The notes under the pieces: generated by a model
The model's input: the letters and a program-made list of their open reading frames with translations, nothing else
Database searches by the model: none
What the model was told of the DNA's origin: nothing
Part shown: positions 39,735 through 64,000 of the stretch, in pieces
Layout of the letters: every line of letters begins with the position of its first letter
How positions within the stretch are numbered: position 1 is the first letter of the stretch
Translations under genes and position numbers: made by a program
Origin: Marsupella aquatica
Lineage: Eukaryota > Plantae > Marchantiophyta
DNA: 64,000 bases
Assembly: GCA_973895155.1 (NCBI GenBank)
Contig: OZ316891.1
Location: 15,345,037-15,409,036 of the forward strand
Direction: 5' to 3'

Positions 39735-40083
39735 TGTTGGGTATTTACTCTTACGTCTAGATTAGGTATGACGTGGTTGGTACAACAACGTGGGTTGGTA
39801 CAACTACGTGATTAGGTACAACTAAGTTGCACACTATATCATAAGAGGCATGTGTCCTTGGAGAGGTAGAACCAAGGCTCATTGTTATGGAGCCACTTGA
39901 GAGATAGGGAGAGCTTACACTGTGGAGACTCGGTATAGCCGACGGGCTTAGAGTTCATTAAAGCTCTCTTGTGTGTTCCCGTAGACGTAGCCTCAAGGAG
40001 GTGAACCACGTATCTCTTGTGTCGACTATTGTGCGTTGGATGGTTCATGGGCTTGCCGTTGCGATCGTCGTCTATGCTCAACA
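39735..40083 (+). repeat. 3' LTR (349 bp)
   Basis: Matches the 5' LTR except for three fewer 18-bp units and about 5 substitutions. Confidence 0.97.
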
Positions 40084-40593: not shown

Positions 40594-41060
40594 TGTTGAG
40601 CATAGACGACATTCGTAACAGCAAGCCCATGAACCATCCAACGCACAATAGTCCACACAGAGAGATACGTGGTTCACCTCCACATGAGGCTACGTCCACG
40701 AGATCACACAAGTCAAAGCTTTACTGCACTCTAGGTCGAACGGCCATACCAAACATCCACAACACAAGCTCTCCCTATCTCTCAACTAGCTCCGTAACAA
40801 TGAGCCTAAGTTCCACCAGGGTCTGGCATTAGCCCTGGCTTAATACACTACAGCACTACCGCTAACATTAGTTAAGTCCTAACCTGAGTTAGACTAACTG
40901 TGGTTAGCTCATGAGTCACAAGACTATAGCAATATCTAACAAACTCCCCCTTGACTCTTGTCTTGGGGACTCGACTAAATGCTACCATATGGAATCCTCT
41001 GCGGGAAGTTCTAGACAATCACCAAACCAGGTCTCCCCCTAAAAACCACAACAACCCCAA
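40594..41060 (-). mobile_element. Truncated related Copia: 3' LTR (40594-40941), PPT (40942-40957) and 3' UTR, broken off near 41.06 kb
   Basis: The reverse complement of the neighbour's LTR end (GTCGTCTATGCTCAACA) starts at 40594. The PPT GAGTCAAGGGGGAGTT abuts TG. The 3' UTR (CTAGAACTTCCCGCAGAGG) is similar to 39640-39734. Confidence 0.88.
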
Positions 41061-41319
41061 TTTAAGGAAAACCAAACTTTGGAAATTCTGAAAATCACTA
41101 AATATTATTATTTTAATAAAAAGGGGGCAACATGACGCGTGGCTGCGCGTGAAACCCTGAAAATGACTGCAACGTCACATTTTTACCAATCCAACTTGAC
41201 GGGACCAAGAGACATGCTCACGCGAATAATAATAATAGAGAAATAAATCTTTGAGATCCTTTATATATGATAACCAGTATATAAGGAGTTTACAAATAGT
41301 TTCTAGAATGACATACAAA

Positions 41320-42842
41320 TTAATCTGATCTCATGCCGACTATTATTTTGGAAGCGTCCAAAATTGGGCGTCTGTTAAATTGCTCTACTAGATATCTATC
41401 TCCATGCCTCTGAATCACAGGGTCTTCCCATAGAGTATGATTATAATCATAATCTCTAAAAATAGATTTAACTGACCAATCTGAATAATCTCTTCCATTG
41501 GCAATGACAAGCGGCTCACAAGAGTTTGCTAGCTTGCTAAGATACGGAATCAACAAGTTAATCAGGAAACTGTCGTCGACCGACCCAAAATATTTGGGCG
41601 GAAATAATGATCCAACAACAGGATCTAAACAAGCATGAAATGCATCGGATTCGATAAGCATTATATTTTGCTGCAGATACGCCTTCGTATAAATTCCAAC
41701 CTTCTCAAAACACTTCAAAAATATCCGCTTATTTGATGTCACCCCATCGCATAAGTAACAATGAGACTGATCCCAAATATACTTAAATGAGGCCATTTCC
41801 ATCGCAGTAAAAATAGATGCTAAAATCTGATCTAAAAGGTTCTTCCCAAGAGAGGACCAGATCCCTACATCGAAATTCTCAAAACAGAATCTCAAGAATT
41901 CGTGAAGATGAGGCCTTGGAAAAACGTATATATTCCCAATCCGAATTCCAGTTGAGACCGCCATCAGTCGGGAATGCGGTGCAGTGTAACAGAGTAGATG
42001 CTCCACGTCTAAAACTATGAGCCCATTTTCTCTGCTGCAATGAATCTCCTGTAGAGAAACACAAGAAGATGCATGAGCCCGTATGGATGTAGTCACGCGA
42101 ATGGTCGCGTCACATATTACAGAGAAAAAATCCTCTACACTCTGGCCATTGATAAGTGACGTCTGTTGAAGTGCTTGATAAGAACTTGATCCGCATGTCT
42201 CTGCACGTACAGATGCTCCCATATATCCTTGTTCAGATCCCAATCTCGATGTAGATTTCTAATCGACCAGATGGGATAATCGAACTTGTTAGCGAACGCA
42301 AGACAAAGCCTTGAATTTGATAGCTTTCGTAAATATGGAATGAGGTCATCCCTCAAAAAGACATCATCCAACGATCCTTGAAACGACTTAGCGAACAATA
42401 ATCCGCATACAGCTGTCTGGCATGTATGGGAAGGACAGGCATCAATCTGGATTATATTCTCTGGTCGATAATCTTGAAACATATCACGTAGTCTCTCGAT
42501 AGATTTGAAGACAACAGTCTTATAATTTTTCTTCACATAACCAAGATTCCAGCAATGATCCCGCGTGAACACATATATCAGCTGCGATAGGTCGGTGCTC
42601 GACAACACTTCTGAAAGTATCTGATAAACCAGTTTATCGTCGAGAATAGACCAGACCATCACATCAAAATGATCATAACAGAATTTTATAAGATCATGAA
42701 GATGCGGCCTCGGAATGACACATAGAGATCCGATATGAATTCCGGGTGTCGACTTGAGCTGAGGAGTATATTTTGAAACAGAGCACAAGAAGTTTTCCAG
42801 TCCTAAACCTAGAAGTTGACGTGACCTGCTCCACTTAGACAC
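41320..42842 (-). CDS. Two tandem degenerate FCP1/SCP (NIF) HAD phosphatase-like domains (exons 42842-42141 and 42048-41320); possibly the tail of the upstream large gene
   Basis: Motifs PRPHLHDLIKFCYDHFDVMVWS, VVFKSIERL, PENIIQID and PRPHLHEFLRFCFENFDVGIWSS, YIWDQSHC, RIFLKCF, QNIMLIESD. A phase-0 GT-AG intron at 42140-42049 joins ...HLSMAR|EIHCSR in frame. The DxDxT motif is degenerate in both (LGLGLEN, VLDVEH). Confidence 0.8.
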
Positions 42843-42967
42843 CTGTAAATGAACAATTTGATTCTCATATTATGCAATTGCAAACAACCACGTGACCGGG
42901 CACGTCACTCCCAAAAGTTCAATTTCAATCAATTTATAAATAATAATTGATAATAAACAATAAACGT

Positions 42968-43873
42968 TTACTTATTGGACTTATCCCGAGCTTCTATAGC
43001 ACGGTCTTTCTTGGCAGATAAGTATTTCATAAATTCGTCAAACTTTTCTAAATGGTCTTTATTCCCCTGATTACGAATGATCACGTTTCTCCTCCAAAGA
43101 TTCGTCTTATCAATATAATCTTTCTCAAGATTTTCTTGAGAGAACGTTGGAATCCCATATCCACTAAGGAGCTCACGGAATGTCAACTTGTCAATTGACA
43201 TGTCGCATAGATATGGATATAGTTTCTTTCTAAAAAATAGGTCATCATCGAGCCCAGAATATGCATCGGGATAGAGCGATGAATAGAAGTCATTAAGGCT
43301 CGTCTTATATGCAGCGTCATCGATAAGAATGACATTCTCGATGTTGTAATCTTTAATATCGGCGGCAATGTCCGAGAGACATTTGACAAATAAAGGGATG
43401 TCATTATTATTCTTCCCAATAAGTCGAGTTGATTCTTGTCCCCATATAAATTTAATACGTTTCAAAACTTCGGGTCGAAGTATCAACCTTACACAAGATA
43501 GAATATTTTGTTTGAACATGCACGACCAGATCGCAATGTCGTATAGATCTGCCACCTTCTCAAGAAATTCCATTAAATGAGGCCTTGGATAGATAACCTT
43601 GTGCATCTGTCTCACACCCCTTGATCGAATGGGCATCCCAGGTCTGATCTTCTCTGACCAGATAAGTACCCGATTCAGATCAAAAATTACAAGTCTCTTC
43701 TGAACCGGTGACTTCTTTGCCGATGGATTAGGCGCCATCTGTACCTGTGATTTTTGTGCCGCAGGGTTTGGAGAACGTACTAGAACGGTCTGTTTGTTTC
43801 CCGCCTCCGGACGATCACCGGACTTCCGGACTGGTGCCTTCGATACTCGATCAGGGGGTTTCGGGATAGGCTT
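42968..43873 (-). CDS. FCP1/SCP-like HAD phosphatase domain exon (DLNxxL subtype)
   Basis: RLVIFDLNRVL, YPRPHLMEFL, YDIAIWS, FIWGQES, LFVKCL, ENVILIDDAAYK. Confidence 0.88.
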   Translation of the reverse strand, partial: KPIPKPPDRVSKAPVRKSGDRPEAGNKQTVLVRSPNPAAQKSQVQMAPNPSAKKSPVQKRLVIFDLNRVLIWSEKIRPGMPIRSRGVRQMHKVIYPRPHLMEFLEKVADLYDIAIWSCMFKQNILSCVRLILRPEVLKRIKFIWGQESTRLIGKNNNDIPLFVKCLSDIAADIKDYNIENVILIDDAAYKTSLNDFYSSLYPDAYSGLDDDLFFRKKLYPYLCDMSIDKLTFRELLSGYGIPTFSQENLEKDYIDKTNLWRRNVIIRNQGNKDHLEKFDEFMKYLSAKKDRAIEARDKSNK

Positions 43874-43959
43874 CTGTAAAACATTAAGAAATGAAAATAA
43901 GTTTATAACGCGAACGGTCGTGTGACTACAAAGAGAGACACTGAAATGAAGTGTATTAC

Positions 43960-44748
43960 CTGTACAAGATGGTCGTTCAGTGCTAGAATTCCACCGGAAA
44001 TGCCAATCATAGCAGCACGGATCCCGGTAACTAGGTTACTTGCGGACGTCGGCTTGCGGAAGTCCATGTCAAATAACGACAAGACTATCTCCCTACGGAA
44101 TTTCTCAATTTGATCCGTGGAAAAATTAATTCCGTTTCCTTGACACAAGCACTTGGCGTATCTCAAGATAAACACACCACAACTGTGGCCATCACTCTGG
44201 TGAGGAATATCATTCCGATATATCTGTTCCCAACCTGAGAGATCCAAGTTGACACCAGTTCTCCAGCCAATTTCGTCGGCGTAGTACTTCCCAACAATAT
44301 CTAGCACCCCAGGATTCTGTCGATTATGAACTAGAGAATCTAGGTACTCCAGCCGTTTCTTCTTCGGATACAAGACTACCAATGACCAATGTTCTTTCAC
44401 AGCATTGTGTACTGGAAAGACCAGTTTGTCGTATTCACTGATTTTTAGCAGAAACTCCTTTGTCCAAGCTGCCCTCTCCTCGTCAAAAATGGTAGGATCC
44501 ATGGAGAGAAGCTCAAAATGGTGTGTTTGGAAGAATTTGACAAGGTCTGACTTTCCAACTCTATCGAGAATCAGTTCGAGAAAACTCAAATAAGCGTTAA
44601 TTATATCATCGGTGAGCAACTCGCGCGGTCTCAAACACATCATATGTTTCCTCTTTATCGAGTGTTGTAAGAACTTGGTCAATAGCTCTTCCATATCCTT
44701 AGAAGGATCAAGGCATTGATCTATTCGACTAGCCAAATTTTCAAAAAA
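43960..44748 (-). CDS. Ulp1/SENP-family (peptidase C48) SUMO protease domain exon
   Basis: LRPRELLTDDIINAYL, KLVFPVH...EHWSLVV, LEYLDSL, IPHQSDGHSCGVF. The His-Asp-Cys triad and the oxyanion Gln are present. Confidence 0.92.
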
Positions 44749-45559
44749 CTGCAAAAAACAGAGATTTCAATACGCCTTCAAATAACGTACTGAGGTTGTA
44801 GCCTAAGGGTTGTAGCCTCAGAAAACAAAAACAATAACAGATCAATAATAAAATAATGACGTCTATAATAGAAACTTTAAGCTTATAGCTTGCGAATGAC
44901 CTTTGGATTGGGTGGATCCGGCCTTTTTGCAGCTGATCTCTTGGGTGCCTCAATCGCAACAACATCCTTCAGCCCTCCTCGAGACCGCAGTGATCGCTCC
45001 ACCGGACCAGTTTGCGAAGGTTGGAGCGATGAGGCGGGAAGACCTTCAAATGGTTGTGGCATTTGATTCAAATATTCCACAATCTGGGAATCCGATTCCA
45101 AAATATCCGGTGCCACAATTTCTACGTGAGTCACCTCTGCAATATATCGAGGTCGAGACCACGAACCCGGTCGCGTCAAGTCAGCTGTTAGTCTCTTAAC
45201 GACTTGAGCCGAGTCTGGTGCCAAAAACGTTCCCAGGTCTGGCACTCGATTCTCGGAAAAGCGCACATTATTGATGATTGTCTCCATTCTGGATGCAGTG
45301 GCAGTCTTCTCCTCGGTAATCAAAAGCTTCCAATATTGCAAAGCAAGGACTGCCTAGACTCGAAGCTACTCCGGTGAATATTTATTCCAATCATCCAATG
45401 AGACTGTACTTAAGGGTGGATCGTTAAATTCAAACTCCGGGCGAAGAAAATAGTCTAATATTTTCTTCTTAATTGCAACTGAGGGTGAAGAAGGCTTCTT
45501 CAAATTTAGCCTTATTTTCGGTAGACGTTGTGCCTCAGGAATAAGCGAAAGATCCTTGG

Positions 45560-46200
45560 CCCTCTCGGCCTCCTTCCTCGCTGCCTCCAGTCTTGCGGCT
45601 TCTTCTCTCTCCAGTCTTGCGGAATCGACCTTTTCTGCCTCCAACTTCTCCGCCTCCACCCTCTCTGGTCTTGCGGTCTCGTCCGCCATCCTCTCGGCCA
45701 GCAGCCTCTCAGCCGCCACACTCTCCGCCTTGGCCCTATTTTCCTCTGTCACTAAAAGGACTCTCGCAGCCTCCGCGTTCTCGGCCTTCGCTTTCTCCGC
45801 CTGGGCTTTCTCAGCCTCCGCTTTCTCAGCCTGGGCTTTCTCAGCCTCCGCTTTCTCCGCCTGGGCTTTCTCGGCATCCGCTTTCTTCGCCTGGGCTTTC
45901 TCGGCATCCGCTTTCTCCGCCTGGGCTTTCTCAGCCTGGGCATTCTCAGCCTCGGCTTTCTCCTTCTTCTTCGCGGCAGTTGCTTTTCTAGCTGTTGCCT
46001 TTTTCTTCTTAACCTCCTTCTTTTGAAGCTCCTCTTGTCGGGCCGCATCCTGCCGGGCCGCCTCCTCCAGCCTGGCCGCCTCCTACCGGGCCGCCTCCTC
46101 TCTGGCCTCCTCCTGCCGGGCCGCCTCCTCTCTAGCCTCCTCCTGCCGGGCCGCCTCCTCTCTGGCCTCCTCCTGCCGGGCCGCATCCTCTCGGTCCACC
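45560..46200 (-). repeat. Coding tandem repeats (EEAARQ/EEAR and AEKAQ/AEKAE units) forming a coiled coil
   Basis: 15-bp units such as TCAGCCTCCGCTTTC and TCCGCCTGGGCTTTC at about 45770-45960. 30-bp units CCTCCTCCTGCCGGGCCGCCTCCTCTCTGG at about 46050-46190. Confidence 0.9.
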
Positions 46201-48059
46201 TCATGTCGAGGCTCCTGTGTGGCCTCTTCATCAAAGTCCTCAGCGTCCTCGGAACCCTCCATCTCCTCGTCCTCTTCATCAGCGTTCTCAATGTCCTTCA
46301 TCTCCTCTCCGTCACTCTCTTCATCTCCTCTATTGTCGGAATTTCCGACGTTGTTCTGCGTATCGGTCATCCACTCTGGATCTTGGTCATTGACATCCCC
46401 ATCCGCGTCACCTTCCACGTCATCTTCCCCCTCACCATCCGCATCACCATTGCTCCCTGCATCCTCAACATTGAAGCCGCAGTCGACTTGATCTGAATAA
46501 AATCAGATCATTTGATAAGAATGACTCACGCGCATATTCGCGTGAAAAGAAATGTTATGAATGTCCACGCGCATGTTCGCGTGACGCAATAAAAAGTAAG
46601 AGGTTTCAAAAGTAACTTACCTTGGATTGGCCCACTAGGGTACTCCGTTGGTCGAATGTACAATCGATCGGAATCTTCAGAGAGTGCATACTCTTGCAAT
46701 AATTGATTACAAATATTATCAGGGATATGTTGTTCGTGGAGGACATCCAAAACATCAGCCCTGAGAGCAGTTACGGATGGACGGTACTTCATTAATTTAT
46801 CTATACATTTTTCTATACTAGCCCGTACTGGGTCAATCAATGACAGCATTGTATCAATTGTCGTCGTGGTGTGTTGCAAGAAACAAGACAACTCCCTATG
46901 CGTTGCCACAGGGTAGTAATATTTTACATTGGATCCAGCATCCCGTAAAAAAAGCTGAAATTAGTTCACAATATTAATTGAGAATATAATAATCTAAATA
47001 ATCTTAAAATCGAAACCCCAAAATATAAATCTCAAAACTTACCATTAAGCACTGGATCAAGTTCGTTCCCTCACCGAAGCATATAGCCCATTCCCCACAT
47101 TGGATGAATTGACTAACAATACTTTCAAAGAATGGAAGTATCTTTTCTGGGGAAGGTGTCGTGAACTCGCCGCTCTCTTCAAAATTGGCTATCTTCTCAA
47201 TCTGATATTTGGAGACCAATTGGAACTCGAGGGCTTGTGGATCGCCCATTGTGCTGAAGGCCAAGCTGTGAAAAGCGTAAGTTACAATAAGCTTCTTCTC
47301 CTTCGGCCGCTTCTGAATATAATGGCTATCGACAGCAACGTAGTGTGTGTACTTCCCTAATTCCCGTTTGATTAAGTAAGACTCAACGGGAGAGGCTACA
47401 ATAATAACCACATGGTGTGGTTTTGCCCCTATCTCGCTAGTAGCACGAAATAACCCCTCATAGAATGAGCAATTTGGCGGACGCAAATCTCCCATTGATG
47501 AGGGATCAAAATAAATCAAGCTCGCAAGGTTCTTGTCTTCACGTATGATACAGTCTGCAAACCCAGCATTTTGTATATCCTGCAGGGATCGCAATTTCAA
47601 CCTCTCACCGACCGGCTGCACTAGTTGGTTTCCTTGACTATCAACTGATTTCTGTATTCCTTCGACCAACCTGTAGAATATAGGGTCGATCTCCTTCAAC
47701 AAATTATCATTACTAATATTTACATTTAACACTAGTACATATTAAGCTGATTTTCGATGCTCAATTTTTGCGAACAATCGGCGTCCGATTCTTTTAGCAT
47801 CGGAAATTCCGATTATCAAAAAATGGCAATATGCCATACTCTCGGCTTTGAATATCTTCATTTCCGATATAATTGACAACGGAACCTTTCCGATGCGTTA
47901 AAAAACGGATCATATCTGTTAGAAAACACATCGGATCCCTCAACAAAAACTTTGATTGATATGTCCGATGTTTTTTGTAACGAAAATGATGTGCGTTACA
48001 ATATTGATCGGAAACTTTCCGTAGTTAATAATAACGGATATTATATCCGATTGTGCTAA

Positions 48060-48216
48060 CATGGCAAAGTCCGATGTTAGGAGAATGGGAAAGTCCGATG
48101 CTAGAAGAATGGGAAAGTCCGATGCTGGAAGAATGGGAAAGTCCGATGCTGGGAGTATGGGAAAGTCCGATGCTAGAAGAATGGGAAAGTCCGATGCTGG
48201 GAGTATGGGAAAGTCT
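48060..48216 (+). repeat. 21-bp tandem repeat (GAATGGGAAAGTCCGATGCTA-like), CACTA subterminal
   Basis: About 7-8 copies, with an inverted counterpart at 49063-49245. Confidence 0.95.
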
Positions 48217-49062
48217 GGTTATGACAAAAAGAAATTTTTTGATTGTGTTAGAATGAAAAGTTTTGATGTGTTAGATGGGGTATGTGGTTGCACCGATATA
48301 CTCTTCCCAAAAGATGCAATCATTCTTGCATGCATGAATAACTTCATACTTGAGGCAAATGGACTTGAGTGTTGTTTTTGCCTCATTCCAAGACCCAACA
48401 TATTGTTCCCTTACGGAAATATGTGCTCTACATGCCAAGTCCAAAATACATCATCTAGAAGGAGGTTGCTTGTCCCATGTAGTCTTTGTTGCAAGTCCAA
48501 CAACAACATAGTTGATAAAAGATGAGACAATCAGGAGCCATTGACGCTGAGGCTTTGGAAGGACCAAAATATCATCCATAACTAATAAGCCATAATTATC
48601 CCATATCAAATCTAATGAAGGAGGGCTTTACTATCGATGAATGACCCCTGCCAGATTTCTATTGGTTTCTCCTAGGGGAATGTAATAGGGTAACTAGAAT
48701 AGGTCACTTGATGCAAAGATCTAATCTCATGATAGAGAAAAATGGATCAAGAATGGGTCCAAATTATGGGTCTTAGTAAACTCACAAGTGTATAAAATCC
48801 CCAAACACTCTAAGTCAAACAACAAAAGTGCTAAGCTTGCATGTACAATGTAAGGAATAAGAACCACAAAGTTAAGCTCATGTTGGAGGAATAGCAATTG
48901 GGATGGGTGACCAATTAGTTGAGAAAATTTGAAGAGTTCACATGTCAAGGGAGATGGGCACCTAGCTCATAGTTCCAAATGAAAGTAGAAACCCAATTAA
49001 AGGAAGAGATGGGTGACCTGAGCATGTCGCGTCCGCTGAAATGCATATCCCATTTTGATTGC

Positions 49063-49245
49063 TTCGGACTTTCCCATTCTCCTAGCATCGGACTTTCCCA
49101 TTCTCCTAGCATCGGACTTTCCCATTCTCTCACCATCGAACTTTCCCATTCTCCTAGCATCGGACTTTCCCATTCTCCCACCATCGGACTTTCCCATTCT
49201 CCCACCATCGGACTTTCCCATTCTCCCACCATCGGACTTTCCGAT
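49063..49245 (-). repeat. 21-bp tandem repeat (CATCGGACTTTCCCATTCTCC-like), inverted partner of the 48060 array
   Basis: About 8-9 copies. Confidence 0.95.
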
Positions 49246-51423
49246 AGAAGTCCGATTGTCGATATCCGATACTATTAAAATGGCATGTTGCGATGCTAGT
49301 AGTATTGGATATATGGTTTTTCAAATTTTATTTTACAAAGGTGTCCGATGTGGAGAGAATCAAAAAAAGGAGGTAAAATGTACTAGTGTAAGCACTTCTT
49401 CAGATAACCACTCAACGCATCTCTCAACTGATTCAGGACCATCTTGTCGAGCTTAAAGCAATCAATCATTCCTTTGACCCGCAATTTCCGCGCTGAATCT
49501 GTCAGACTTTTCAGCTCCATCCAGGTGGATGTTTCCCCATTGAGTTTACTCAATAATAAAATCTCAAACTCAACTTTCGTCTTCTTCTTTATACAGAATT
49601 GCTCCAAACTCATGCTGGTCGTTGACAACACTGGAGCCTCAGAGGACTTCCTCGCCTTCCCAGATTTCACTTTGATGCTTCAGTTTTTGAGTATAGACAA
49701 TCTTCCGCTCAACATATATTCCGCTGCCTTTCGAAGAACCGAGTCTGAGCACCCTTGACAAGAACGGAACGTCTTCTTCAGAAGATGATAAGCACACGGA
49801 TTATCCACAATTTTGACGGCGTCCCTCTGTAAAATTCCGTTGTAAATTACAAGCTCTCCTGTCCTTGATAGTTCGTAGACCTCCATCCACTTCTTGAATG
49901 TTTCGTCCTCCATTGTAAAGAGAAACGGAGCCAATTCTCCAAATTTCATCATTTCGTTCTTCCCCATTTGAGCCCATGGGCAAACAAAACTCGTAGCTCT
50001 CATAAATACCTGAAAAACAATGGAAACATGACAATTCTAAGCTTGACGCGACCAGTCGCGTGATAAAAGTTTACACGAAAATGTGATCGAAGAGGGTTAT
50101 TTATATACCTTCCAATTTGGATGACGATAATGTGATCCAGGCCGCCCAAATGAGTTCCAGATATTACGATACTGTCGTACAATGGTGAGAAACTGTCCTT
50201 CTTCCATTGATGTTTGATGACAGTGGTTCAGAGCTTTCCATAATCCCATCAAATGAACATTATTGTCGTTGTTGAGCGTTGCCCAAAACATTACAGCTTC
50301 TACAGTACCGCAAGCGTCTCATACAACTTGGCTGACTTTGTCGTCCTCTCTCAGCAATTTGTACGCCATTATTGTGTGCTGGCCTCCGAGTATCCAGAAA
50401 TGACTGGTCATAATGTCCTCCTCCTTTGGCGATGAATCGTAGGGCGTCCCATTGTAGGCGGGATCTCTGTCGGCCTCCGACTGAACCCACTTCACAGGGA
50501 CTAAAAAGCAGCATCGCTTCTCGAACTTTATAGCCGAATGAGAGAGGAGTGAATTCTTTAGCCTATCTGTGTAATCATGATTCCACTCTCGGCACTTGAT
50601 GTGGTCCGGTGCAAGATGACAACGTGATGTCTCAACAAAAAATGACTTGCTGTTAAATATATTCACAACACTATATTCTTTGAGGAAAGAATCGAACAGA
50701 GCCCCGACATTCGCTGAGGTAATTACTTTCGGAAGATTCTCCGCCGAGTATACTTCAACCTTGCTAACTGGCGGGGCCTTTCCCAAGCGAAATCCCTGGT
50801 TGAAAGGAACTCTCTGGAACTCAAGTACGTCAATAATATATTGACAAATCAAATCTCCCGTTGATGCCTCTGGATCGGAAGGATATCCCACACTAGTAAC
50901 CTTTTCCAAGGCGTGCCTTGCACCTAGAAGATAATCGATTCTAGGCTGATTGAAGGTTACATATTGCGTTCGATCCAAACAAATACTTATTTTGTCTTCC
51001 TGCTGGTCGTCGCTGACTAGCAGAACCAATCCCTCTGTACACTCTTTAACTTTCATGTTCTTCTCAAAGAAACACCCGAGAATTTTTGATCTCTCCAAAA
51101 CTGTAGCTTTATCATTTCTTGCCACCACAAGACGGACAACCCCATTGCGAACGACTATTCCAAAATCGGATATCTCAGTCGATTCAAAGAGATGGATACT
51201 CTTTGTCTCCGTTGTTCTCTCTCTGATTGACTTTCCTCGATATGCAAGTATGGATGTCTCCGTGGGAGTCATTTTTGTCTTGGTTTTCTTTCAAGAAGCA
51301 GCTTTAGACGAGTCTCTTTTCCGCTTTGAGGTTCCGGTAGGATCCATTATGAAACAGACAAAATATTGAAAGTTAAACGTTTATTATAAAATACTAACAC
51401 GCGTTTGGTTGCGTCGTGCCGAA

Positions 51424-51954: not shown

Positions 51955-52153
51955 AATATGGAAAATATTAAGAACAAGAACCTATCCATTAAGAACTGGG
52001 ACCACCGAAATTCTGAGAAAATCTACCAAACCTTTCGATTAGGACATCTCGTTCTTCCTCATCTAAATTGTTATATTTGTTCGTAAACAATGCGATTTCG
52101 TCAGAAGTAGTAGTCCCAAGAACAGATATTTCTGGAAGGATAGAAATATCCTG

Positions 52154-52555: not shown

Positions 52556-52620
52556 CTTGCTTTTATCATATCACAAAACATTGTTAGAAGACATACGACG
52601 CGCTTGGTCACGTAAGTTAA

Positions 52621-53208: not shown

Positions 53209-53269
53209 GCGACTGGTCGCGTCTACAAATCAGAATGCATAAACAATTCTTTGATAGATTGATCATAAA

Positions 53270-54125
53270 TGTCTTCGTCCTCTAACAGAACCAGTCAATG
53301 AGAGAGCAACCTCAGACGCGACTGGTCGCGTCAACTGAACCTAAACAACTATATCCACTGAACCTTATGTGGAGATTTGGATATGGTACGCGCTCAGTAA
53401 ATCTATCCAGTTTCCTTCTCACACGCGACTGGTCGCGTCAACTGGTCCTAAAAGGAACCTTACCTCCTCTAACAGAACCAGTCAATGAGAGATCTACGTC
53501 AGACGCGACTAGTCACGTCAACTGGTCCTAAAAGGAACCTTACCTCCTCTAACAGAACCAATCAATGAGAGAGCTACCTTAGACGCGACTGGTCGCGTCA
53601 ACTGAACCTAAACAACTATATCCATTGAACCTTTCTTGTGGAGATTTGGATATGGTACGCGCTCAGTAAATCTATCCAGTTTCCTTCTCACACGCGACTG
53701 GTCGCGTCAACTCGTCCTAAAAGGAACCTTATCTCCTCTAACGGAACCAGTCAATGAGAGAGCTACCTCAGACACAACTGGTCGCGTCAGCTGAACCTAA
53801 AGAACTATATCCACTGAACCTTATGTGGAGATTTGGATATGGTACGCGCTCAGTAAATCTATCCAGTTTCCTTCTCACACGCGACTGGTCCTAAAAGGAA
53901 CCTTACCTCCTCTAACAGAACCAATCAATGAGAGAGCTACCTGACGCGACTGGTCGCGTCAACTAAACCTAAACAACTATATCCACTGAACCTTCCTTGT
54001 GGAGATTTGGATATGGTACGCGCTCAGTAAATCTATCCAGTTTCCTTCTCACACACGACTGGTCGCGTCAACTGGTCCTAAAAGAAACCTCATAGTATTT
54101 TCACGCGACTGGTCGCGTCAACAGC
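53270..54125. repeat. Compound tandem repeat (about 80-250 bp sub-units) rich in the ACGCGACTGGTCGCGT palindrome
   Basis: The block GTGGAGATTTGGATATGGTACGCGCTCAGTAAATCTATCCAGTTTCC occurs 4 times and CCTCTAAC(A)GAACCA(G/A)TCAATGAGAGA about 5 times. Confidence 0.95.
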
Positions 54126-55216
54126 TCAAACAACTTTTGGACAATAGGAGAATACAGTGATACAACTATGATTGCTGACCCGTACGGACAAGGAAATCCG
54201 AGTAAGCATGATTTCATTCATTTGTATTCATTCATTTGTATTCATTCATGAACTTTACAATAATTCAGATGTTTGAGCTCTGTCATTGTGAAACTATTAT
54301 ATATCAGAAGTTTAGAGAATGATCCAGCTAAGATGATTCAATTTAGCAGTCTACTGGTTGTATTCATCAATTAAAGGATTCAGTGTAATGAGATTCACAT
54401 AACATGAGAGTTTATATGATTAAATTCACAGCGGGCAAGTTTGTAATGACTTACTTAAGATAATTCAGGTTGTATTTTAATTAGTGAGTTTGTATGATTC
54501 ACACATATTTGAGTTTACAAACAAACCGCGTTATGAAAACTGTGCTTAACAATCAACAAAAATTTTAGCAAACCACAATCAACACCAGCAGAAAATGTAG
54601 AAATTACACCTGAATTCTGAAAAATTGATGTAATCGTCTGAGAGATTGACATCCAAGCACTTGAAGACCTTGCTGCGGCATTCCAGAAAGTAAATATAAG
54701 ATTGAAGATATTAATATGCTAAGCAACAACAACACAGCTTCTATACTTCTATACATAGAGCTTCGCTGCCACCAATTGAATAACATGTGCTTAATGCTAA
54801 GGAGCTCATTATGTCGAGTTAAAAAGACTCTTTTAGAAGTACAATCAAAGCTGTGGATAGGCAAACTGAGCATGAATAAAAGCGCACTAAACCTGAAGAT
54901 TCAAAGAGGTGAAACAAACCTGAATGTTGAATGGAAGGAGCTAAAACAAGCTGCCAAAAAGTAGTTTGAGCTGCTGAAACATGTTGATCAAGCTGATATG
55001 AGCTTAAAATTGGCTGACACGAGCTGATACAAGCACTCCCAAAAAGCTAGCTACAACGAACTAGCAAACTAGAAGTGAATACGAGCTGTAAATGCAAGCT
55101 GCAATGCGCCAACGAGCTCCTAGTCGAAACGATGGACAACTACTAAGAGCTGCAACGCGCCGACAAGCACCTGACCACAATGAACGAGTTGCAACGACAA
55201 AAATGAAATCCAGGGC

Positions 55217-55290
55217 AGGAGCGAGAGCGAGAGCGAGAGCGAGAGCGAGAGCAAGAGCAAGAGCGAGAGTGAGAGCGAGAGCGACGAGAG
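55217..55290 (+). repeat. (GCGAGA)n microsatellite
   Basis: About 10 imperfect hexamer units. Confidence 0.9.
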
Positions 55291-56714
55291 CAGGCGTGCA
55301 AAAGTCTAGGGAGCGAGAAACAACAACAATGAACAATGAACTCGAGACCGTGGGCGCCGACACTAAGGAAGGACTAATTAGGGTATTGTTTTAGCATAAC
55401 CCTAATAACAGCCTAGCGACATTAAGGTTCCAGATGATCTCCGTACACTCCACCATCGACTGAACAAACTATGCAATCGTGAAAAAAAGATTACCGGATT
55501 TTTTGATTTTCCGTACTAAAGAAGATTTCTATTTGATCGCCAATTTGAAATTTAAACCGGTAATTATGCAACTGCGAAAGATTGTTAGTGGGGACCCCCG
55601 GATCCGGATCCGTATCTTCACTATATCTGCCAATTCAAATCCAAAATGTGAACGGACGACAACTTTCTCATGATCGTTCCATCACGTAGTGGAGGCAAAC
55701 TTTGAAATCATTCCATTTTGGTAGTGGAGACCGTCGGATCCGGATCCGTACTCCACTCTCTATCTTGCCAATTCAAAACCTTACTCTAAACGACGTAAAA
55801 CGATTCTCATGGTCGGGGAGAACCGATATTCAAAATCAATCCTGTACAATGATTCTCACGACTGGAGACTCAACCAATTTTCAAAATCAAAATCGAGTCC
55901 AAATGAACACATCCTCCATGGAGTCAATAGACTGATCTCATTGCTCACGGATCATTCTTCATTTTCAGTTTCTCCTGACCAGGATACCAGCTAGGCTCTC
56001 AACGGAGGCTGATCCAAGGCACATTTGAGGTGGAGCAGATTGGATCATTCGACTATTCCAGTCAGAGGCGGAGCTCATTCAAGCAACGCTGGCGCAGTTC
56101 TTGTTGTATCACCTTCAATCTTGGGGAGAGCACATCCGATCAAGCGGGAGAGTTGCGACGAAGCGAGACGACAAAGATTTAGAACCTCCATAGTCTGCCT
56201 CATTCATCGAAGCATTCTAGCGGACCAACAAAGAGCGGCTATTCTGAAATCACTGTCTGGTCGAGGATTTTGATCTTGATACGATCAACAAGTTGTCATT
56301 CTCTGGTGGTGGGATTCGGTCACGATACTCAAGGAAATTGGAGTTCGAAGGAGGAGGCTTAGTTGGCTGGGATGAGGAGGAGGCTACGCTGGAAGGAAGA
56401 GGCTTGGCTGGGAGGAGGGTTTCCGCCAACATCGGAGGGTTGCCGCCAACATTGCTGAGACCACACACAACTGAATAACTTGTAAGTATCAATCAGCATT
56501 AATTCCGCAATAAATGAGGAGAGTAGTTGCCTTAAATCATGCATTCAATGCATGAATTGAGTCAATGAACTTATGGTCCAATTTCTCACTCCGATTTTGA
56601 TCAATCCGTGTTTCAAGTCCAATACAGAAGCAATGTATAAGAAGTACTAGTAGAGGATCCGAATGAATTCTCTAGTCTAAAATTGTATGGCGTACGCGTA
56701 TAGTTGTCCGTACG

Positions 56715-58170
56715 TTTTGCTATTGTTTATTGTAGTCGACGGCCTAGCAAAACGAAACGTAATCGAGGTCCATTTTTCAGATCTTCCTGATCTCAACTTG
56801 TTAGTAGGATGACCTATTTTTTGGTTACACATGTAGTTCGTCACGCGCACAGTCACGTGAACCAATTTATCTCGTGTCTTTTGATATTGTTTATTGTAGT
56901 CGATAGCCTATCAAATTGGCCAGCAATCTATTTTAAAACCAACGTCTTTGTTTCATCACGCGCACGGTCGCGTTAATGTTTTAGAGGTCAGCGAAAGCTC
57001 TGCACTCTTAGACGTAATCGCCCCTTTATTTCTCAGATCTTCCTGATCTCAACTTGTTAGTAGGATGACCTATTTTTTGGTTACACATGTTATTCGTCAT
57101 GCGCACAGTCGCATGAACCAATTTATCTCGTGTCTTTTGATATTGTTTATTGTAGTCGATAGCCTAACGAATTGGCCAGCAATCTATTTTAAAACCAACG
57201 TCTTCGTTTCATCACGCGCACGGTCGTGTTAATGTTTTAGAGGTCAGCGAAATCTCTGCACTCTTAGACATAATCGCCCTTTATTTCTCAGATCTTCCTG
57301 ATCTCAACTTGTTAGTAGGATGACCTGTTTTTTGGTTATACATGTAGTTCATCACGCGCACAGTCGCATGAACCAATTTATCTCGTGTCTTTTGATATTG
57401 TTTATTGTAGTCGATAGCCTAGAAAATTGGCCAGAAATCTATTTTGAAACCGAGTTCTGATTCACGCGGCCGGTCGCGTTAATGTTTTAGAGGTCAGCGA
57501 AAGCTCTGCACTCTTAGACGTAATCGCCCTTTATTTCTCAGATCTTTCTGATCTCAACTTGTTAGTAGGATGACCTGTTTTTTGGGTTACACATGTAGTT
57601 CATCATGCGCACAGTCGCGTGAACCAATTTATCTTGATATTGTTTATTGTAGTCGACTGCCCAGCGAATTGGCCAGAAATATATTTTAAAACCGAGGTCT
57701 TCGTTTCATCACGCGCCCGGTCGCGTTAATGTTTTAGAGGTCAGCGAAAGCTCTGCACTCTTAGACGTAATCGCCCTTTATTTCTCAGATCTTTCTGATC
57801 TCAACTTGTTAGTAGGATGACCTGTTTTTTGGGTTACACATGTAGTTCATCACGCGCACAGTCGCGTGAACCAATTTATCTTGATATTGTTTATTGTAGT
57901 CGACTGCCCAGCGAATTGGCCAGAAATATATTTTAAAACCGAGGTCTTCGTTTCATCACGCGCCCGGTCGCGTTAATGTTTTAGAGGTCAGCGAAAGCTC
58001 TGCACTCTTAGACGTAATCACCCTTTATTTCTCAGATCTGCCTGATCTCAACTTGTTAGTAGGATGACCTGTTTTTGGTTACACATGTAGTTCATCACGC
58101 GCATAGTCGCGTGAACCAATTTATCGCAGGTCTTTTTGATATTGTTTATTGTAGTCGACAGCCTAGCAAA
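56715..58170. repeat. Tandem array of about 6 units of 240-256 bp, each with two ACGCG-N6-CGCGT variants
   Basis: GATATTGTTTATTGTAGTCGA recurs at about 56883, 57139, 57394, 57636, 57883 and 58138. Confidence 0.96.
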
Positions 58171-58375
58171 TTGTCAGTCAGAGGAATCTCGATTTTTCCT
58201 TGATTGCAAAAATGGTTACATCGATCCCGAAGGACTTCGGATGTGGAATCCATATCCACTAGCACTATCCAGGAATTTAAGCTACATAGTATCTATAACA
58301 AGTTCTAACTTGAACTACTCTTGAATCTGTAGTTCTAATCTTCAACTACTCAAAATATTGTTGACTTCGATCGAG

Positions 58376-58918
58376 TCAGTCATTCCAAGATGAAGGCATC
58401 CACTCATCGGTGTCTGGTGTGGATTCCCTTGAATCCATAAATTCTTCCTTTGCCCAAGTCCTAACGTCCATAGATTTTCTCGGCTTTCTCTTTCTATAAT
58501 ACAAATCAGAATCTTTGTTCATCTCTAATTGCCTTTTCTTTGGTGCGTCCACTTTCTTGGCCTCCTTCTTGACTGTCTTAGCGTCTGCTGCTGCTTCCCC
58601 CGAAATGGATTTGACGCATGCTCTGGCCTTCAACTTCTCCCCCCTCAAAACAGATTCCACGAGGGCTTTGCCCTTTAACTTCTCCCCTGATGCCATCTTT
58701 GTAGTCATCTCTGTCGGATTGGTCTCCATCTGATCTTCCATCGACAAATGTGGTGAACAATGTTGTCTCTCACAAAACATTTGACCCGATTTAGTCACCA
58801 TAAATATTATATTACATCGTTGACACATTCTGTAAGGAGTACCATGAATTCGATACGTCGAACCTTCTTAATCGTCCGTCGGAACATCCTCATTCTTTGA
58901 GCTCAGCGGAGTAGTCAT
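58376..58918 (-). pseudogene. Small Cys- and Lys-rich protein of unknown function, one in-frame TAA at 58868-70
   Basis: MTTPLSSKNED...*...RMCQRC...FCERQHC, a basic stretch RKRKPRK and an acidic C-terminus DTDEWMPSSWND. It is oriented divergently from the transposase. Confidence 0.45.
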
Positions 58919-59279
58919 CGCCCTTCAAACAAGAGATGCTGACCGAGACTAAGAATTGGAAATGAGAGAGCTGATGTGCAAATAGATTATCCAGTAGCCA
59001 GAAAGTGGAATGCGTGGGGGAATGAGCAATAGGGATCATCTCAATGCTTTATACTGTTTAGTCTCCACTAGTCATTGTACATAGTGGTTTCTAGAAGAGG
59101 GTGCACGTTTGACTGGCGCGTATTAGAATTGGCGGGAAGTTCAGTTGTCCTCTAATTATGGCTTTAATTTCATGTTTGGCGACCGCCCCGGGAATACTGA
59201 TTGCTAGTGAAGTACTGAGATTTCTTATGAAGGTCAGTAGTTACGGACTGTCCGGTGTCCACTCATTGGTAAACTGGTA

Positions 59280-60000
59280 CTGTCCACTCATTTTTCCTGA
59301 GTGGAGTTGAAATGATTGTCGTAATCGATTGTAGTCGTTCTCATTCACTTGAAATGACTGACGGACCATGCATTATCTTTACCGGTATGTGTGATGCCTT
59401 TAGATCCATAATTGTATCTTCTTGTCTCGTGCGCAATCGTATCTTACTTATGAAGTACCAATTACGAGCTAGAGTTTGGGCCTAGCCTTCTAGCTTCTAC
59501 GTCGTAGACCCTGTACCCTCTGACTAAGGTCACGCAACATGCCTTTAGATCCATAATTGTATCTTCCTGTCTCACGCGAAATCGTATCTTACTTATGAAG
59601 TACCAAGTACAAGCTAGAGTTTTGGCCTAGCCTTCTAGCTTCTACGTCGTAGACCCTGTTATCCCTACACCCTCTGACTAAGGTCACGCGACTAGTCGCG
59701 TGCAGGGCAGTGCATTGACTACATTCTGCCTACTTATTGACGGTTGTGACAGGACAATGCAGTTCACGGATGTTTTACTGGCGCTTATTAGCACTATTGT
59801 CCTCAGTAGTTACTGACTGTCCACTCATTTGTTCTGAGTGGATGTAAAATGATTGATCGTAATCGATTGTGGTCATTCTCATTCATTTGACATGACTGAC
59901 GGACCATGCATAGTCTGTTTCCGGTATGTGTGGTACCTCTAGGGTCACGCGACCAGTCGCGTGCAGCGCAGTGCATTGACTACATTCTGCTTATTGACCG
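59280..60000. repeat. Duplicated blocks upstream of the transposase
   Basis: TGCCTTTAGATCCATAATTGTATC at about 59395 and 59540. TGTCCACTCATTT...CTGAGTGGA at about 59281 and 59818. GGTCACGCGAC(T/C)AGTCGCGTGCAG at about 59682 and 59943. Confidence 0.88.
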
Positions 60001-60089
60001 ACGTGACAGGACAGTGCGGTGAAATTGACGGACGTGACAGGACTGTACGCTTACAGTGATATTCTCTGATGTGCAGGATCATAATTATT

Positions 60090-63000
60090 ATGGTGACATC
60101 GACAGTCTGGATCAGGGAAGGCGGACAAGTTATTATAGGCATACGTGAGAAACAGGTTGGAAAAGGTCACGTGATAAGTCTTGATCCTTCCAGGGTTTGT
60201 CACAATGTTCCTCTTGGGGCGGACAGAGTTCTTCTTCTATTGGAGGAAGTTTTTGACGAGACCATTCTATGCGAAGATGGCAAACTTTTGAAGGACATGA
60301 TTGGGGGTTACCTTGTATGGGAAAGGAATCAGCTTTTTCGAGCTCCCATGGAATCGAAGGATGTGTTTGGCACTGTTGGTGATGATCAAGATCCAGTCAA
60401 TCAAAATTCTGATGGGAACAACCATAATGAGAGTCGGTCTGGTGTGGAAGTAGTTTTACCAAAGGCCTTGTGGATGGGCATGCCTGTAAAGGTGGTGGAT
60501 GAGAACAAGTTGATTTTTGCAGTGGCAACTATACATGTTCTAGATCCTATAGTCAAGCTTGGGGATGTCACCCTTGGGAATACACATGTGGGAATTCTGA
60601 TCAACAATTTTGTCGAGGGAGCTACCATAGATCATCTGAAGCATAGAGATTGCTTAAAAGCTTGGTCGATGGACCAACTCATTGCCAAGGATGGCAACTT
60701 GTTGTCTTTCCACAACATCAGGCAACCTGTGGGAGGGAACACATCTCCAGCAAGTGGTAAGCGGTCCTACGTCCATAAAAGTAGGAAAAGAAAGAGTCCA
60801 TCTTCCCAGACATCTAGAAGAGACACATCTTTGGCACGTCAAGATGTGTTGTTGATAAACACTAAGGATTGTTGTAGTGAACATTGTTGCCAATATTTGG
60901 ACCGCAACTTGGCTATGGCAATTAGGCAAAAATGGTGGTCAAAATCTTTTGCGGAGCGCAAGGAGGAGGAAATCAAGGCTATTAAAAATACAATACACTT
61001 GGGTATTGGAGAAAGGATTCTAGCAGTGGAGGGCAAAGTATTGTGCTTGGAGGCATGGAGAATCATTCATTCAAGAGGAAAGACTCAATTTTATGCCTTG
61101 AAGAAGACTGTGATGGCTGGAATGAACATAGGTACCCCTGGTAATGCTGGAAAAAGGCGTATGTCCGAGAAAGTATCTCAAGCGTTCATGTCAATGAAAG
61201 AGATTATTGAGGAGGCAGCTGATCATCATCCAGCCAAGTTGAGAACCATGGCAGATAATACAAGGATGGTTTTGAGGGAATTGCCAACAAATCTTACTTG
61301 GGAGAATATTAGAAACAGGGTTAATGTTGTCAACCAGGAGGCTGGTCTTCCTCCAATTTCCCAACCCACCTTGAGTCATCTACATCAGATGTATTTCAGG
61401 GAGTTCTCATGTCACAAAAAGGGAAACAACTTTTCAAAGTGTACAACTTGTAGTGAGTTGCTTCAATGGAAAGCAAACCTTACAGGAGCTAAGGAAGAGT
61501 TAGAGGGCCTAAGGCGTGACGAGGAGGAACATCACCAAGACCACACACAGCAAAGAATGTGCTATCATACCTGGAGATATGAGTCCATCCATCGTCCAAA
61601 GGAAGTGTTATGCCTTATTCATGATAAGATGGATCATTCAAAGACAGCTCTCCCAAGAATGCCCTTCAATCCTAAGCATGTGGATGGTGCCCAAAAGTTC
61701 CCAATTACTGTCACTGGTATCCTTACTCATGGTCATGGTCCCAAGGCCATAGCCCAATATCATGTTGGAGTGTGGCCAGGTGATGTCAACATCACTATTG
61801 GGTCAATTGATTCAATACTAAGGATGTTGGAAAACCCAAATCCAATGATCAAATCACTTGTGGAGGGGCCAGACTCGACAAGTCTTTTTAAAGACCTCCT
61901 TTTTGGGAGAGCAGATATCTTGGAGGCAAGTGTCCTTAGAGCATTTGAGGATGACATTGCCTACATCTCAAGCCTAGGTACTTTACTCACAATCCTTTAA
62001 TTTATTATTATTTAATAGTATAAGCTCACACACACTGACACTCTACTTTGTGTAGTTGTTGCTCCTCCTAGCCAAGGTTTCATTAATAGGGTTTAAACCC
62101 TAAACCCTAAATTGGGGTTTAGGGTCTGACTAGGGTTTTATTTAAAAGCATTCTGAGATTGTTACATTGTGATGCAGCACCTGAGGCACCGAAGTTCAGG
62201 CCCCTTCCACGAGTATTGAAGCTACAACTGGATAATTGTGCCTCAGACAACAAGAACAGATATATGATGGCTTATTTGTCATTGTTGACGGCAAGGGAGG
62301 TGTTTGAAGAGGTTCATCTTGGTTTTATGGTGGTTGGGCATACTCATGAGGACGTTGACGGTATGTTCGGGCATTTTTCAGAGTCTATGATGCATAACCC
62401 CACATACTCATTGCCTGAGTTAATGTCCTTGTTCATGAGAGCAAGGACACCCAATGCAGTCCCACATTTTCTATAGGAGGTCCCAGATTTCAAAAACTAC
62501 TTAGCTCCATTCATGTTGAAGGGCCCTGAGGCATTGGTGGGGCATTTAAAACCCAGGCTGTTTAGGTTCTATGTTCGTCATGATAGTATGCCATGCTTCC
62601 AATACAAAATGAAGTCAACTGATCAGGGATGGTTACCCAAGGAAGGTATTGAAATGTGGTCATGGAAAGATGACAAAAGTCCTCACATCCCAATTGGGGT
62701 GCCCAAACGGCTACCAATGATGGAGTTGAAAATGCTTCCTGAAGTGCTGACAGGGTTGAAGAAGCATGTGTCATTCTTTGAGTTTATTCTAAAGCGAACA
62801 AAAGAGGAAGAACCAAAGTGACGTTGGACAACTCTCATCAATTATTGGAATGACATTGTAGATACTCTACAGGGTGAGCAGGTGCAATATGAACCTGAAG
62901 GTGCACACAACTTGGAATACGGGTTTTGGCCTTTATCAATATGGAGAGAGCACGTTCCACCAGAATATCGAAATGTGGCATGTGAGTTGGAGGCAACAGT

Positions 63001-63466
63001 GGATTATGTGGGACCAGCAAAAGATAAACCTCCTGAGAGTTTTAACCCTAGGGTTGATGTTGTGAAGGGCTGTTATGTGTTGGTACGGCCGGACGACTCA
63101 CACCTGGATGTTTATCCCGTCCATATGGGGTTAGTTGTTACAGATGTGGTAGAAGGACCAGTGAATGAACAAAACCTTCTTACTCATGTATGTGGCGTTG
63201 AGTGGTTTAGACCATTTATGGCAAAGAAGCAACGTGGTCAATCAGACTGGCAGCCAAGAGAGCGGTGGGCAGATTCTTGGGATAAGAAATGGGAACGTGA
63301 TCCATCTCCAATATACAAGGAAGCTGAGACAATAGATGTTTCCTCTGCCTTGTGGTGTTTCAAAGCACGCAAAGGACCAGTGACAGGGCTGGTAGGAATT
63401 CCAAAGAATGTTGCTGTCAAGGCAAGAGACTATCTCTTGACATGCATAGCAAGTGACAAATCCTAG
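60090..63466 (+). pseudogene. Sola1-like / DUF7869-type RNase H-fold (DDD) transposase, spliced, with two in-frame stops
   Basis: Exons 60090-61977, 62056-62076 and 62178-63466, all phase 1 GT-AG. Motifs CCSEHCC, FSKCTTC, LCLIHDKMD, LKLQLDNCASDNKNRY and GFMVVGHTHEDVDGMFG. Stops TAG at 62474-76 (HFL*EVPDFK) and TGA at 62819-21 are in frame. The superfamily assignment is from memory of the motifs. Confidence 0.8.
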
Positions 63467-63539
63467 ACAGTAATGAAGCATGTAGTTTAGCATATAGTTT
63501 AAAAGGCAACTCAGAATAGTAGTAGCCAGAGAACTCAAG

Positions 63540-64000
63540 TTTAGACAAGTCTTATCGTCTAAGTTAGTTAGTTGGTTAGTTTATTTAAGATATAATATTA
63601 GTTAGTGGGGCCTTAGTTTGGTGATATATATTAAGGCATGATATTATTGACATTCAAATGAATGTCCAGTAGACATTGTAATATACAACAATCCTATTAA
63701 TAAATAATAATTATAGTTACACCCTCAAGTGAACTCAACTTTCAATGATTTATGATTTTATATGGTTCCATGCCTGATTGAGTCAAAGCAATAGAAACTA
63801 ACTAATTAAAGGGTGATACTATAATTGTAGGTCACGCACCCTGGTGCGTGTCAATCTTTTTTGTATTCAACCTATAGTAATTAAATAGACAAGTTAGTTA
63901 GTTGGTTAGTTTATTTAAGATATAATATTAGTTAGTGGGCCCTTAGTTTGGTGATATTAAGGCATGATATTATTGACATTCAAATGAATGTCCAGTAGAC
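63540..64000. repeat. AT-rich direct repeat downstream of the transposase
   Basis: AAGTTAGTTAGTTGGTTAGTTTATTTAAGATATAATATTAG...GAATGTCCAGTAGAC occurs at about 63561-63675 and again at about 63891-64000. Confidence 0.85.

Follow-up and report, generated by a model that had tools for sequence, protein, structure and literature searches.

The Sola superfamily of DNA transposons is defined by a DDD transposase (PMC10741241), its features have also been described elsewhere (PMC9033089, PMC5751038, PMC3985635; further background in PMC6431247 and PMC4738411), and some Sola elements exceed 15 kb (PMC10741241, PMC9033089). Sola1-1_Ec32 of Ectocarpus is a giant Sola1 of 21.5 kb with ends starting with AACC, a 4-bp target site duplication (TSD), nested insertions and, opposite to the transposase, a gene with a ParB-like and an N4C/N6A amino-methylase part (PMC12477816). 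Its best match is the Physcomitrella Sola1 transposase (PMC12477816, supplement), and self-binding and self-modification were proposed by its authors (PMC12477816). Here, we describe a block in a window of Marsupella aquatica contig OZ316891.1, the window being the whole stretch of 64,000 nucleotides that was analysed. The block reaches from 41053 to beyond 64000 (at least 23 kb), with a transposase on the plus strand and a cluster of cargo genes on the minus strand. At a probability of roughly 0.88, it is one copy, in decay, of a multi-copy DNA transposon that measures at least 23 kb and likely belongs to the Sola1 group.

The core design of such an element, a giant Sola1 with a divergent ParB-methylase gene, is known already; the preliminary description of this DNA knew of no account of the combination, and the view that nothing similar had been described is not supported in the light of the published Ectocarpus element (PMC12477816). 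Novel aspects are that the host is a land plant, that the methylase looks dead and that the cargo includes Ulp1, NIF and F-box-like genes. Compared by description, not by sequence, Sola1-1_Ec32 has a terminal inverted repeat (TIR) of 282 bp, and the window element differs from it in its land-plant host, in a longer predicted protein (1,495 amino acids, aa, against 1,104 aa in Ectocarpus) with a degenerate catalytic motif and an acidic/charged tail, and in the additional Ulp1-NIF fusion, two more NIF genes and three F-box-like genes. In the published literature searched, which did not include the original Sola description, Repbase entries or bioRxiv supplements, no element combines all of these with Ulp1, NIF and F-box-like genes, and no land-plant Sola element has such cargo; one of the searches led to the two algal papers alone (PMC12477816, bioRxiv 10.1101/2025.02.11.637652). 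With Sola1-1_PPa of Physcomitrella, the window element shares the Sola DDD transposase and a seed-free land plant as host (PMC10741241, PMC9033089).

Two systems with other transposases resemble the cargo. The Plavaka elements with PAG1-3 in Bostrychia (17-19 kb) likewise carry a ParB-like accessory protein and a methylase gene, and inverted-repeat tandem arrays beside the ParB gene are their proposed binding sites (bioRxiv 10.1101/2025.02.11.637652); they differ in the EnSpm/Plavaka transposase and in the fusion of ParB to a 2OG oxygenase and of the methylase to SET, and no Ulp1, NIF or F-box is reported in the passage covered (bioRxiv 10.1101/2025.02.11.637652). In VANDAL/VANC of Arabidopsis, a short motif has similarly been amassed in introns, intergenic gaps and tandem repeats (PMC5735166), and an Ulp1 domain is cargo of the anti-silencing KIU/VANC genes of VANDAL/KAONASHI (KIU) elements (PMC13317346). 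These Mutator-like elements (MULEs) differ in their Mutator transposase and lack of TIRs. VANC gave no ParB or methylase Pfam match and is unrelated as far as tested; hypomethylation was demonstrated for VANC, whereas we infer it for the window element. The features of the block and of its insertion target are as follows.

40594 to 41052, minus strand: insertion target, namely the 3' long terminal repeat (LTR), polypurine tract (PPT) and part of the 3' untranslated region (UTR) of a Copia element (LTR/repeat analysis, contig breaks)
41053 to 41110, plus strand: likely left terminus, TIR-like, starting with AACC, with a short internal inverted repeat (Copia break, weight matrices, Sola1-1_Ec32 ends)
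41320 to 42258, minus strand: NIF/FCP1-like gene 3, stop-to-stop frame, motif DVEHL (Pfam NIF, E 6e-15)
42135 to 42869, minus strand: NIF/FCP1-like gene 2, stop-to-stop frame, catalytic Asp missing from its motif GLENF (Pfam NIF, E 2e-10)
42968 to 44694, minus strand: predicted Ulp1-NIF fusion, 546 aa, intact frame, GT-AG intron 43874-43959 holding a palindrome, NIF motif DLNRV
44883 to 51347, minus strand: predicted five-exon ParB-like/methylase-like gene, 1,495 aa, six premature stops (GT-AG introns, frame continuity, bridging homologues)
47730 to 49388, no strand assigned: nested non-autonomous CACTA element, 1,659 bp (1.66 kb), CACTA...TAGTG ends, 3-bp TAA duplication, 24-bp subterminal repeats (repeats, contigs)
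51424 to 51954, minus strand: F-box-like gene 3 (sub-threshold Pfam F-box match, E 0.0025; paralogy with genes 1 and 2)
51991 to 52555, minus strand: F-box-like gene 2, one premature stop (sub-threshold F-box match, paralogy)
52621 to 53172, minus strand: F-box-like gene 1 (sub-threshold F-box match, paralogy)
53278 to 54128, no strand assigned: tandem array 1, upstream of the cargo cluster, palindrome-rich
56700 to 58200, no strand assigned: tandem array 2, units of ~250 bp with a palindrome in each, CpG observed/expected (o/e) 1.37
58376 to 58867, minus strand: small open reading frame of 163 aa with Cys pairs and no family match, uncertain gene
59686 to 59962, no strand assigned: two palindromes just 5' of the transposase start
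60090 to 63466, plus strand: Sola-type DDD transposase (DUF7869), CpG-depleted, ~1,050 aa once its single intron is removed, with two premature stops (Pfam, homologues)
63561 to 64000, plus strand: 330-bp tandem repeat 3' of the transposase; the element continues past the window (repeat analysis)

The DDD transposase with the motifs DKMD, DNCASDNKN and GHTHEDVD, reported before on the plus strand, is present at 60090-63466 and matches DUF7869 (E 9e-31), which we take to be the Sola transposase family. Its three Asp motifs (aa 512, ~640 and ~685) are kept in full-length homologues. Identity as CACTA/Plavaka, KDZ/Zisupton or Mutator was considered and rejected: only DUF7869 matched, and the relatives have 4-bp TSDs and AAC ends, to be compared with CACTA ends and a 3-bp TSD in the first group and TSDs of 7-12 bp in MULEs; KDZ and Plavaka had no Pfam model in the library, and their exclusion rests on the ends. 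A sequence search of the PDB with a full transposase homologue gave no match. The transposase intron contains telomere-like CCCTAAA/TTTAGGG words (62090-62125), where 14 of 15 bases match the left terminus in reverse.

The block begins where the 3' UTR of a minus-strand Copia breaks off near 41050, as had been claimed, and Copia contigs depart from the window sequence at 41049 / 41051. A left terminus between TTAA and GG (41062-66), proposed earlier, was rejected, since 41053 fits both the Copia break and the TIRs of relatives better. These relatives are 80 metagenome loci (48 of them non-redundant) with 29-52% transposase identity and plant-like flanking genes. A matrix made from 8 of their right termini placed 41053(+) at rank 1 of 127,942 window positions, and further matrices placed it at rank 1 (7 left termini), rank 2 (18 right termini) and rank 1 (all 25); its strength as the left end comes from its coincidence with the Copia break 2 bases away. 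The termini of the relatives begin with AACAC (48 non-redundant loci), whereas that of the window reads AACCC and resembles the AACCG termini of Sola1-1_Ec32 (PMC12477816). Both loci with two detected ends (L075 and L078) bear TIRs and a 4-bp TSD (CTAT, TAAA). Within the window the TIR is represented by the left end alone, as identified by matrix rank and Copia break, and no reverse complement of it was found in the 64 kb. Remnants of NIF on the minus strand, 1.1-2.6 kb inside the left TIR, occur at three (L075, L065, L007) of the six non-redundant loci with a left TIR detected upstream of the transposase, a second left TIR intervening in L007; in L075 the order is that of the window, i.e., TIR, NIF, transposase, TIR and TSD. 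As a separate observation, L070 (1999-13714), L029, L032, L035, L036, L057, L064 and L079 have ~5-8 kb of decayed sequence in common upstream of the transposase, which matches no window cargo, and a nested 900-bp insert is present three times in L070.

Multiplicity was assessed from contig depth. The summed depth is even over 41160-61000, repeats excepted (sequencing runs X1, X2, X4). The main contigs of cargo and spacer have depths of 399-492 (X2) and 661-953 (X1), and the unique junction contig 40103-40622 has depths of 19.7 (X2) and 26.2 (X1); the ratio to this junction for cargo, spacer and the 5' end of the transposase is ~20-35x in three runs, an estimate only, as contig depth does not equal copy number. 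The element is likely present in some tens of copies in its host. One large multi-copy DNA transposon of the Sola1 type with divergent cargo, as proposed earlier, is supported by this depth, the left-end evidence and the precedent of Sola1-1_Ec32. Its left part is present in six sequencing runs; X5, from another organism code, had low depth over the cargo, with 29 of the 30 bins covered. Run X6, which has the organism code of X1 and X3, held only 0.06 of the words, a value at which low coverage and absence are indistinguishable.

The window copy differs from the contig majority at 214-221 positions in 20 kb, ~65% of them of C-to-T type; among the difference rows listed (40 of 255), 24 are of this type and 21 of these 24 lie in CG or CHG. 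Its nine premature stops are all TGA or TAG and fall in the ParB-methylase gene (six), the transposase (two) and F-box-like gene 2 (one). The copy is young (~1% off the majority), yet it is a methylated and decaying, pseudogene-bearing relic.

The largest cargo gene had been described as separate ParB-like and methyltransferase-like frames; these are exons of one gene split by the CACTA element, which that description had overlooked, as the frame is continuous across GT-AG introns once CACTA is removed and overlapping homologues join the parts. The predicted protein consists of a ParB-like region (ILGGQHT at aa 319), a helical region, a beta-class amino-methyltransferase-like domain (YFDPSS at aa 692, CFGEG at aa 836), an acidic stretch and 5-residue charged repeats, and one cargo homologue comes from Calypogeia fissa. 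The ParB motif is G-x-H-R, and ILGGQHT is kept in three of the four aligned sequences of this region, from which P0034 was left out because it overlaps only the last 78 columns. Contigs join 47726 to 49389, omitting 1,662 bases, in all three runs (depth 959, 561 and 209) and in three of four in the other mapping, and homologous proteins read straight through the insertion point; the nested CACTA is absent from most copies of the element. Its own family is deeper in the reads than the host element, and it contains a minus-strand remnant that reads like a TnpD motif. No longer relatives of the ParB exon were found among 1,867 candidates, which is weak evidence. In the Atlas, 50322-51275 (minus strand) most resembles clusters of fungal DUF3723 proteins (0.89, a lead only), and DUF3723 occurs in the covered part of the Starship literature.

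The Ulp1 protease recognised before on the minus strand matches Peptidase_C48 (E 3e-19) with His-Asp-Gln-Cys present (triad and oxyanion Gln), and its nearest solved structures are SENP1/SENP2 (E 4e-18); it has to be corrected in that Ulp1 is spliced in frame, without a stop, to the first NIF domain. All three NIF domains score above the Pfam cut-off (E 6e-15, 2e-10 and 1e-11). The catalytic motif of FCP1/SCP phosphatases is DxDx(T/V), which none of them keeps (DLNRV, GLENF, DVEHL), and UBLCP1 is the only solved NIF relative found (E 8e-7). Three FCP1-like domains are present as stated before; with the motif lost in each, phosphatase activity on the C-terminal domain (CTD) of Pol II is unsupported. 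Three related genes on the minus strand likewise correspond to the F-box-like frames described earlier; the F-box call itself is weak, the matches being partial and below the curated cut-off (E 0.0013-0.014), with a common L-x-G-x-P-D...I-W-P motif with an insertion.

One recurring palindrome had been said to tie the block together, and this holds far above chance. The palindrome ACGCGACTGGTCGCGT (ACGCG-N6-CGCGT) has 27 matches with at most 3 mismatches between 42095 and 59947 and none in 1-41059, and 30 Markov simulations of the block gave one match in total; a looser core gives 29 matches, adding one at 41135, versus none outside. The 27 matches are all non-coding, although 12.8 of 22.9 kb are coding, with exon limits that are approximate and were set after the palindrome positions were known. 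Some stand alone, within introns or between one cargo gene and the next, and others form part of the two tandem arrays that separate the divergently transcribed gene sets. A GAGCGA microsatellite in a 100-codon frame (55205-55290, plus strand) lies between the two arrays. Another repeat, an inverted similarity of 48 bp (77%, E 2e-4) between 40153-40200 and both 59441-59488 and 59586-59633, links the unique spacer left of the Copia LTR with a 145-bp duplication upstream of the transposase.

The CpG content changes within the block. CpG o/e ranges from 0.63 to 1.37 across the cargo genes and the spacer and from 0.20 to 0.42 within the transposase. Counted at codon boundaries, the cargo reaches 0.68-1.09, against 0.30 for the transposase, 0.41 for Copia and 0.60 for the host dynein gene (Fisher p 2e-6, 8e-8 and 2e-3, respectively). 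This step fits long-term shielding of the palindrome-bearing part from 5-methylcytosine (5mC), but the pattern would be no different if the cargo had been captured recently from a source without methylation.

By analogy with VANDAL, and given the identity of the element, there is a slightly better than even chance that the cargo is a self-recognition and anti-silencing module. The transposase would cut at short TIRs (left end 41053) and yield 4-bp TSDs, as its relatives suggest. The ParB/pseudo-methylase protein, probably dimeric, would bind ACGCG-N6-CGCGT wherever it occurs in promoters, in introns or in the arrays, and would not methylate it. Binding would shield the CG-rich sites from 5mC, and the promoters of cargo and transposase would stay usable, like VANC does for VANDAL. 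The Ulp1-NIF protein may strip SUMO off silencing factors at the element, and the catalytically degenerate NIF and F-box-like proteins could serve as adaptors or decoys. Of the targets named in the preliminary description (ubiquitin/SUMO, CTD and DNA modification), the SUMO protease retains an intact triad, and a CTD phosphatase and active DNA modification are unsupported. Taken as a whole, a giant Sola1-type transposon whose cargo is such a module is the best explanation of the block, and we put it at even odds.

Several observations weigh against this explanation. Neither the right end, which lies outside the window, nor a TSD, nor the flanks of other copies were seen. The terminus score alone is not significant (matched in 9 of 30 shuffles), and no loose contig end was found at 41053 among the rows listed (18 of 457). 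Sola1 prefers AWWT as target (PMC3845634); AWWT flanks only 5 of the 25 termini of relatives, though 84 of 100 flank bases are A/T, and the left flank in the window is CAAC. This mismatch lowers the apparent fit to Sola1 and is not fatal to it, because Sola1-1_Ec32 is likewise annotated with a target bias other than AWWT (PMC12477816, supplement). Transposase contigs are ~1.5x deeper than cargo contigs (729 vs 399-492 in X2; 1,292 vs 661-953 in X1), so some transposase copies may be without this cargo. None of the 80 related, decayed loci showed Ulp1, the ParB-methylase, an F-box-like gene or the palindrome, the Pfam scan of these loci taking in 150 of 987 frames; cargo therefore varies between families, NIF being the oldest passenger seen. 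The ParB assignment is a lead, suggested by the motif and by weak matches (Atlas DUF3723 0.89 and ParB_N 0.85; Pfam DUF6551 E 0.16; no Pfam match in the main scan), and the model of this region is poor (pLDDT 44). Finally, the window copy itself was methylated: with ~65% of its differences of C-to-T type, protection from methylation is therefore not constitutive.

The rival that survives best accepts the same transposon and assigns the palindrome and the ParB-like protein to transcription control or to synapsis of the ends of so long an element, with spreading and condensing of DNA in the manner of ParB; CpG retention would then reflect no more than recent cargo capture or selection for the binding sites. 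Palindromes at each gene start and intron agree with this, as do the binding of inverted repeats by ParB proteins (bioRxiv 2025.02.11.637652) and the CG/CHG decay of the window copy. However, CpG is kept also in palindrome-free coding exons, at a level above even the host gene, NIF linkage is old, being common to relatives at 29-52% transposase identity, and a single palindrome (41135) lies near the left end; we regard this rival as rather unlikely.

It was also considered that the methylase works with a non-canonical active site and places N4-methylcytosine (4mC) or N6-methyladenine on the palindromes of the element, blocking 5mC. The fold would allow it. The structure model of P0027, a homologue 47-58% identical to the window exons (pLDDT 77), aligns with CcrM at Z 13.1 (root-mean-square deviation 3.7, 174 aligned residues; Foldseek E 4e-6), followed by MboIIa (12.8), PvuII (10.6) and rotifer N4CMT (10.3), and other folds fall to 7.1; in this predicted model, a beta-class amino-methyltransferase fold is confirmed. 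The likeness (Z 10-13) extends to CcrM, M.MboIIa, M.RsrI, M.PvuII and rotifer N4CMT and to pseudo-methylases such as METTL14, from which the protein stands apart by 5-14% identity and, compared with the active enzymes, by its degenerate catalytic motif. The FxGxG-like S-adenosylmethionine motif partly survives (CFGEG). The beta-class catalytic motif is (D/N/S)PP(Y/F/W). It is lost in all nine aligned sequences covering it, the window having DPSS and the others DCSV, DSTL, DGTI, DSSI, DATL, DSMV and YASI; this alignment, A1, comprises nine of 12 matches, with P0035, P0037 and P0038 excluded, the last (a Calx-beta repeat protein) judged a chance match. For comparison, a TSPPY motif is seen in a published study (bioRxiv 2021.02.12.428880). 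In favour of this rival, 4mC at CG is known in a liverwort (bioRxiv 2021.02.12.428880), and the Ectocarpus protein is predicted to be active (PMC12477816). Degeneration in every aligned sequence makes a pseudo-enzyme likely, and an active methylase is correspondingly improbable. Of the earlier methyltransferase call, the fold therefore stands, and active DNA modification does not. An assignment of the methylase exon to RNA-dependent RNA polymerase (Atlas 0.91, recognition 929) was rejected, being weak and at odds with the fold. Neither the exon nor A1 had a sequence match in the PDB.

Equally hard to sustain is the view that no single mobile unit exists: cargo and Sola transposase would have been joined once and then passively multiplied through duplications, segmental or in tandem, or else the cargo would be a non-autonomous element of its own. 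It draws on the unseen right end and TSD, on the greater depth of the transposase, on the lack of this cargo at most related loci and on the fact that no single contig covers the whole stretch among those listed for X1, X2 and X4. Nevertheless, one palindrome type spans 41135-59947, the left end at the Copia break matches the TIRs of relatives, L075 repeats the order of the window from TIR to TSD, and the flank 40103-40622 has single depth while the sequence from 41160 on does not. A viral origin of the cargo, as a piece of an endogenised large DNA virus in or beside which a Sola element landed, is very improbable: NIF, F-box-like, Ulp1 and methylase domains do occur in large DNA viruses and the CpG of the cargo is not depleted, but the cargo has GT-AG introns, the Pfam scan of the window contained no viral hallmark gene, the ParB exon, NIF1 and Ulp1 had no relative in viral_contigs (single-protein searches for close relatives), and no PHROG match reached E < 0.01.

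The surroundings of the giant Sola1-type transposon belong to the host and to other elements. The left ~33 kb (1-33700, minus strand) hold a dynein heavy chain gene (Pfam AAA_6 to AAA_8) with unusually long exons, one frame reaching 1,167 aa, which indicates a host with flagellated cells. Together with the Copia and CACTA elements, the decay in CHG context and the Calypogeia fissa homologue, the dynein gene suggests a seed-free land plant as host. An intact full-length Copia (34577-40083, plus strand) with LTRs ~96% alike, which differ in the number of an 18-bp repeat, has a 5-bp TSD (TCATA) and very high depth in X1, X2 and X4. It is followed by the second, minus-strand Copia, whose 3' LTR, PPT and UTR run from 40594 to ~41052 and are cut by the element.

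For land plants, this family is a young multi-copy case in which the site is an obvious candidate, the catalytic centre is probably dead and the extra cargo converges on the Ulp1 of VANDAL, and the self-recognition hypothesis becomes directly testable there. It may be speculated, with considerable doubt, that a Sola1 lineage of seed-free plants evolved a multi-gene anti-silencing kit independently of VANDAL, in which a ParB/methylase of bacterial type lost catalysis and became a sequence-specific reader of the CG-rich palindrome, with the SUMO protease, pseudo-phosphatases and F-box-like adaptors in support and the CpG step as its record. If true, it would be a second, unrelated plant anti-silencing system and possibly a programmable shield against CG methylation.

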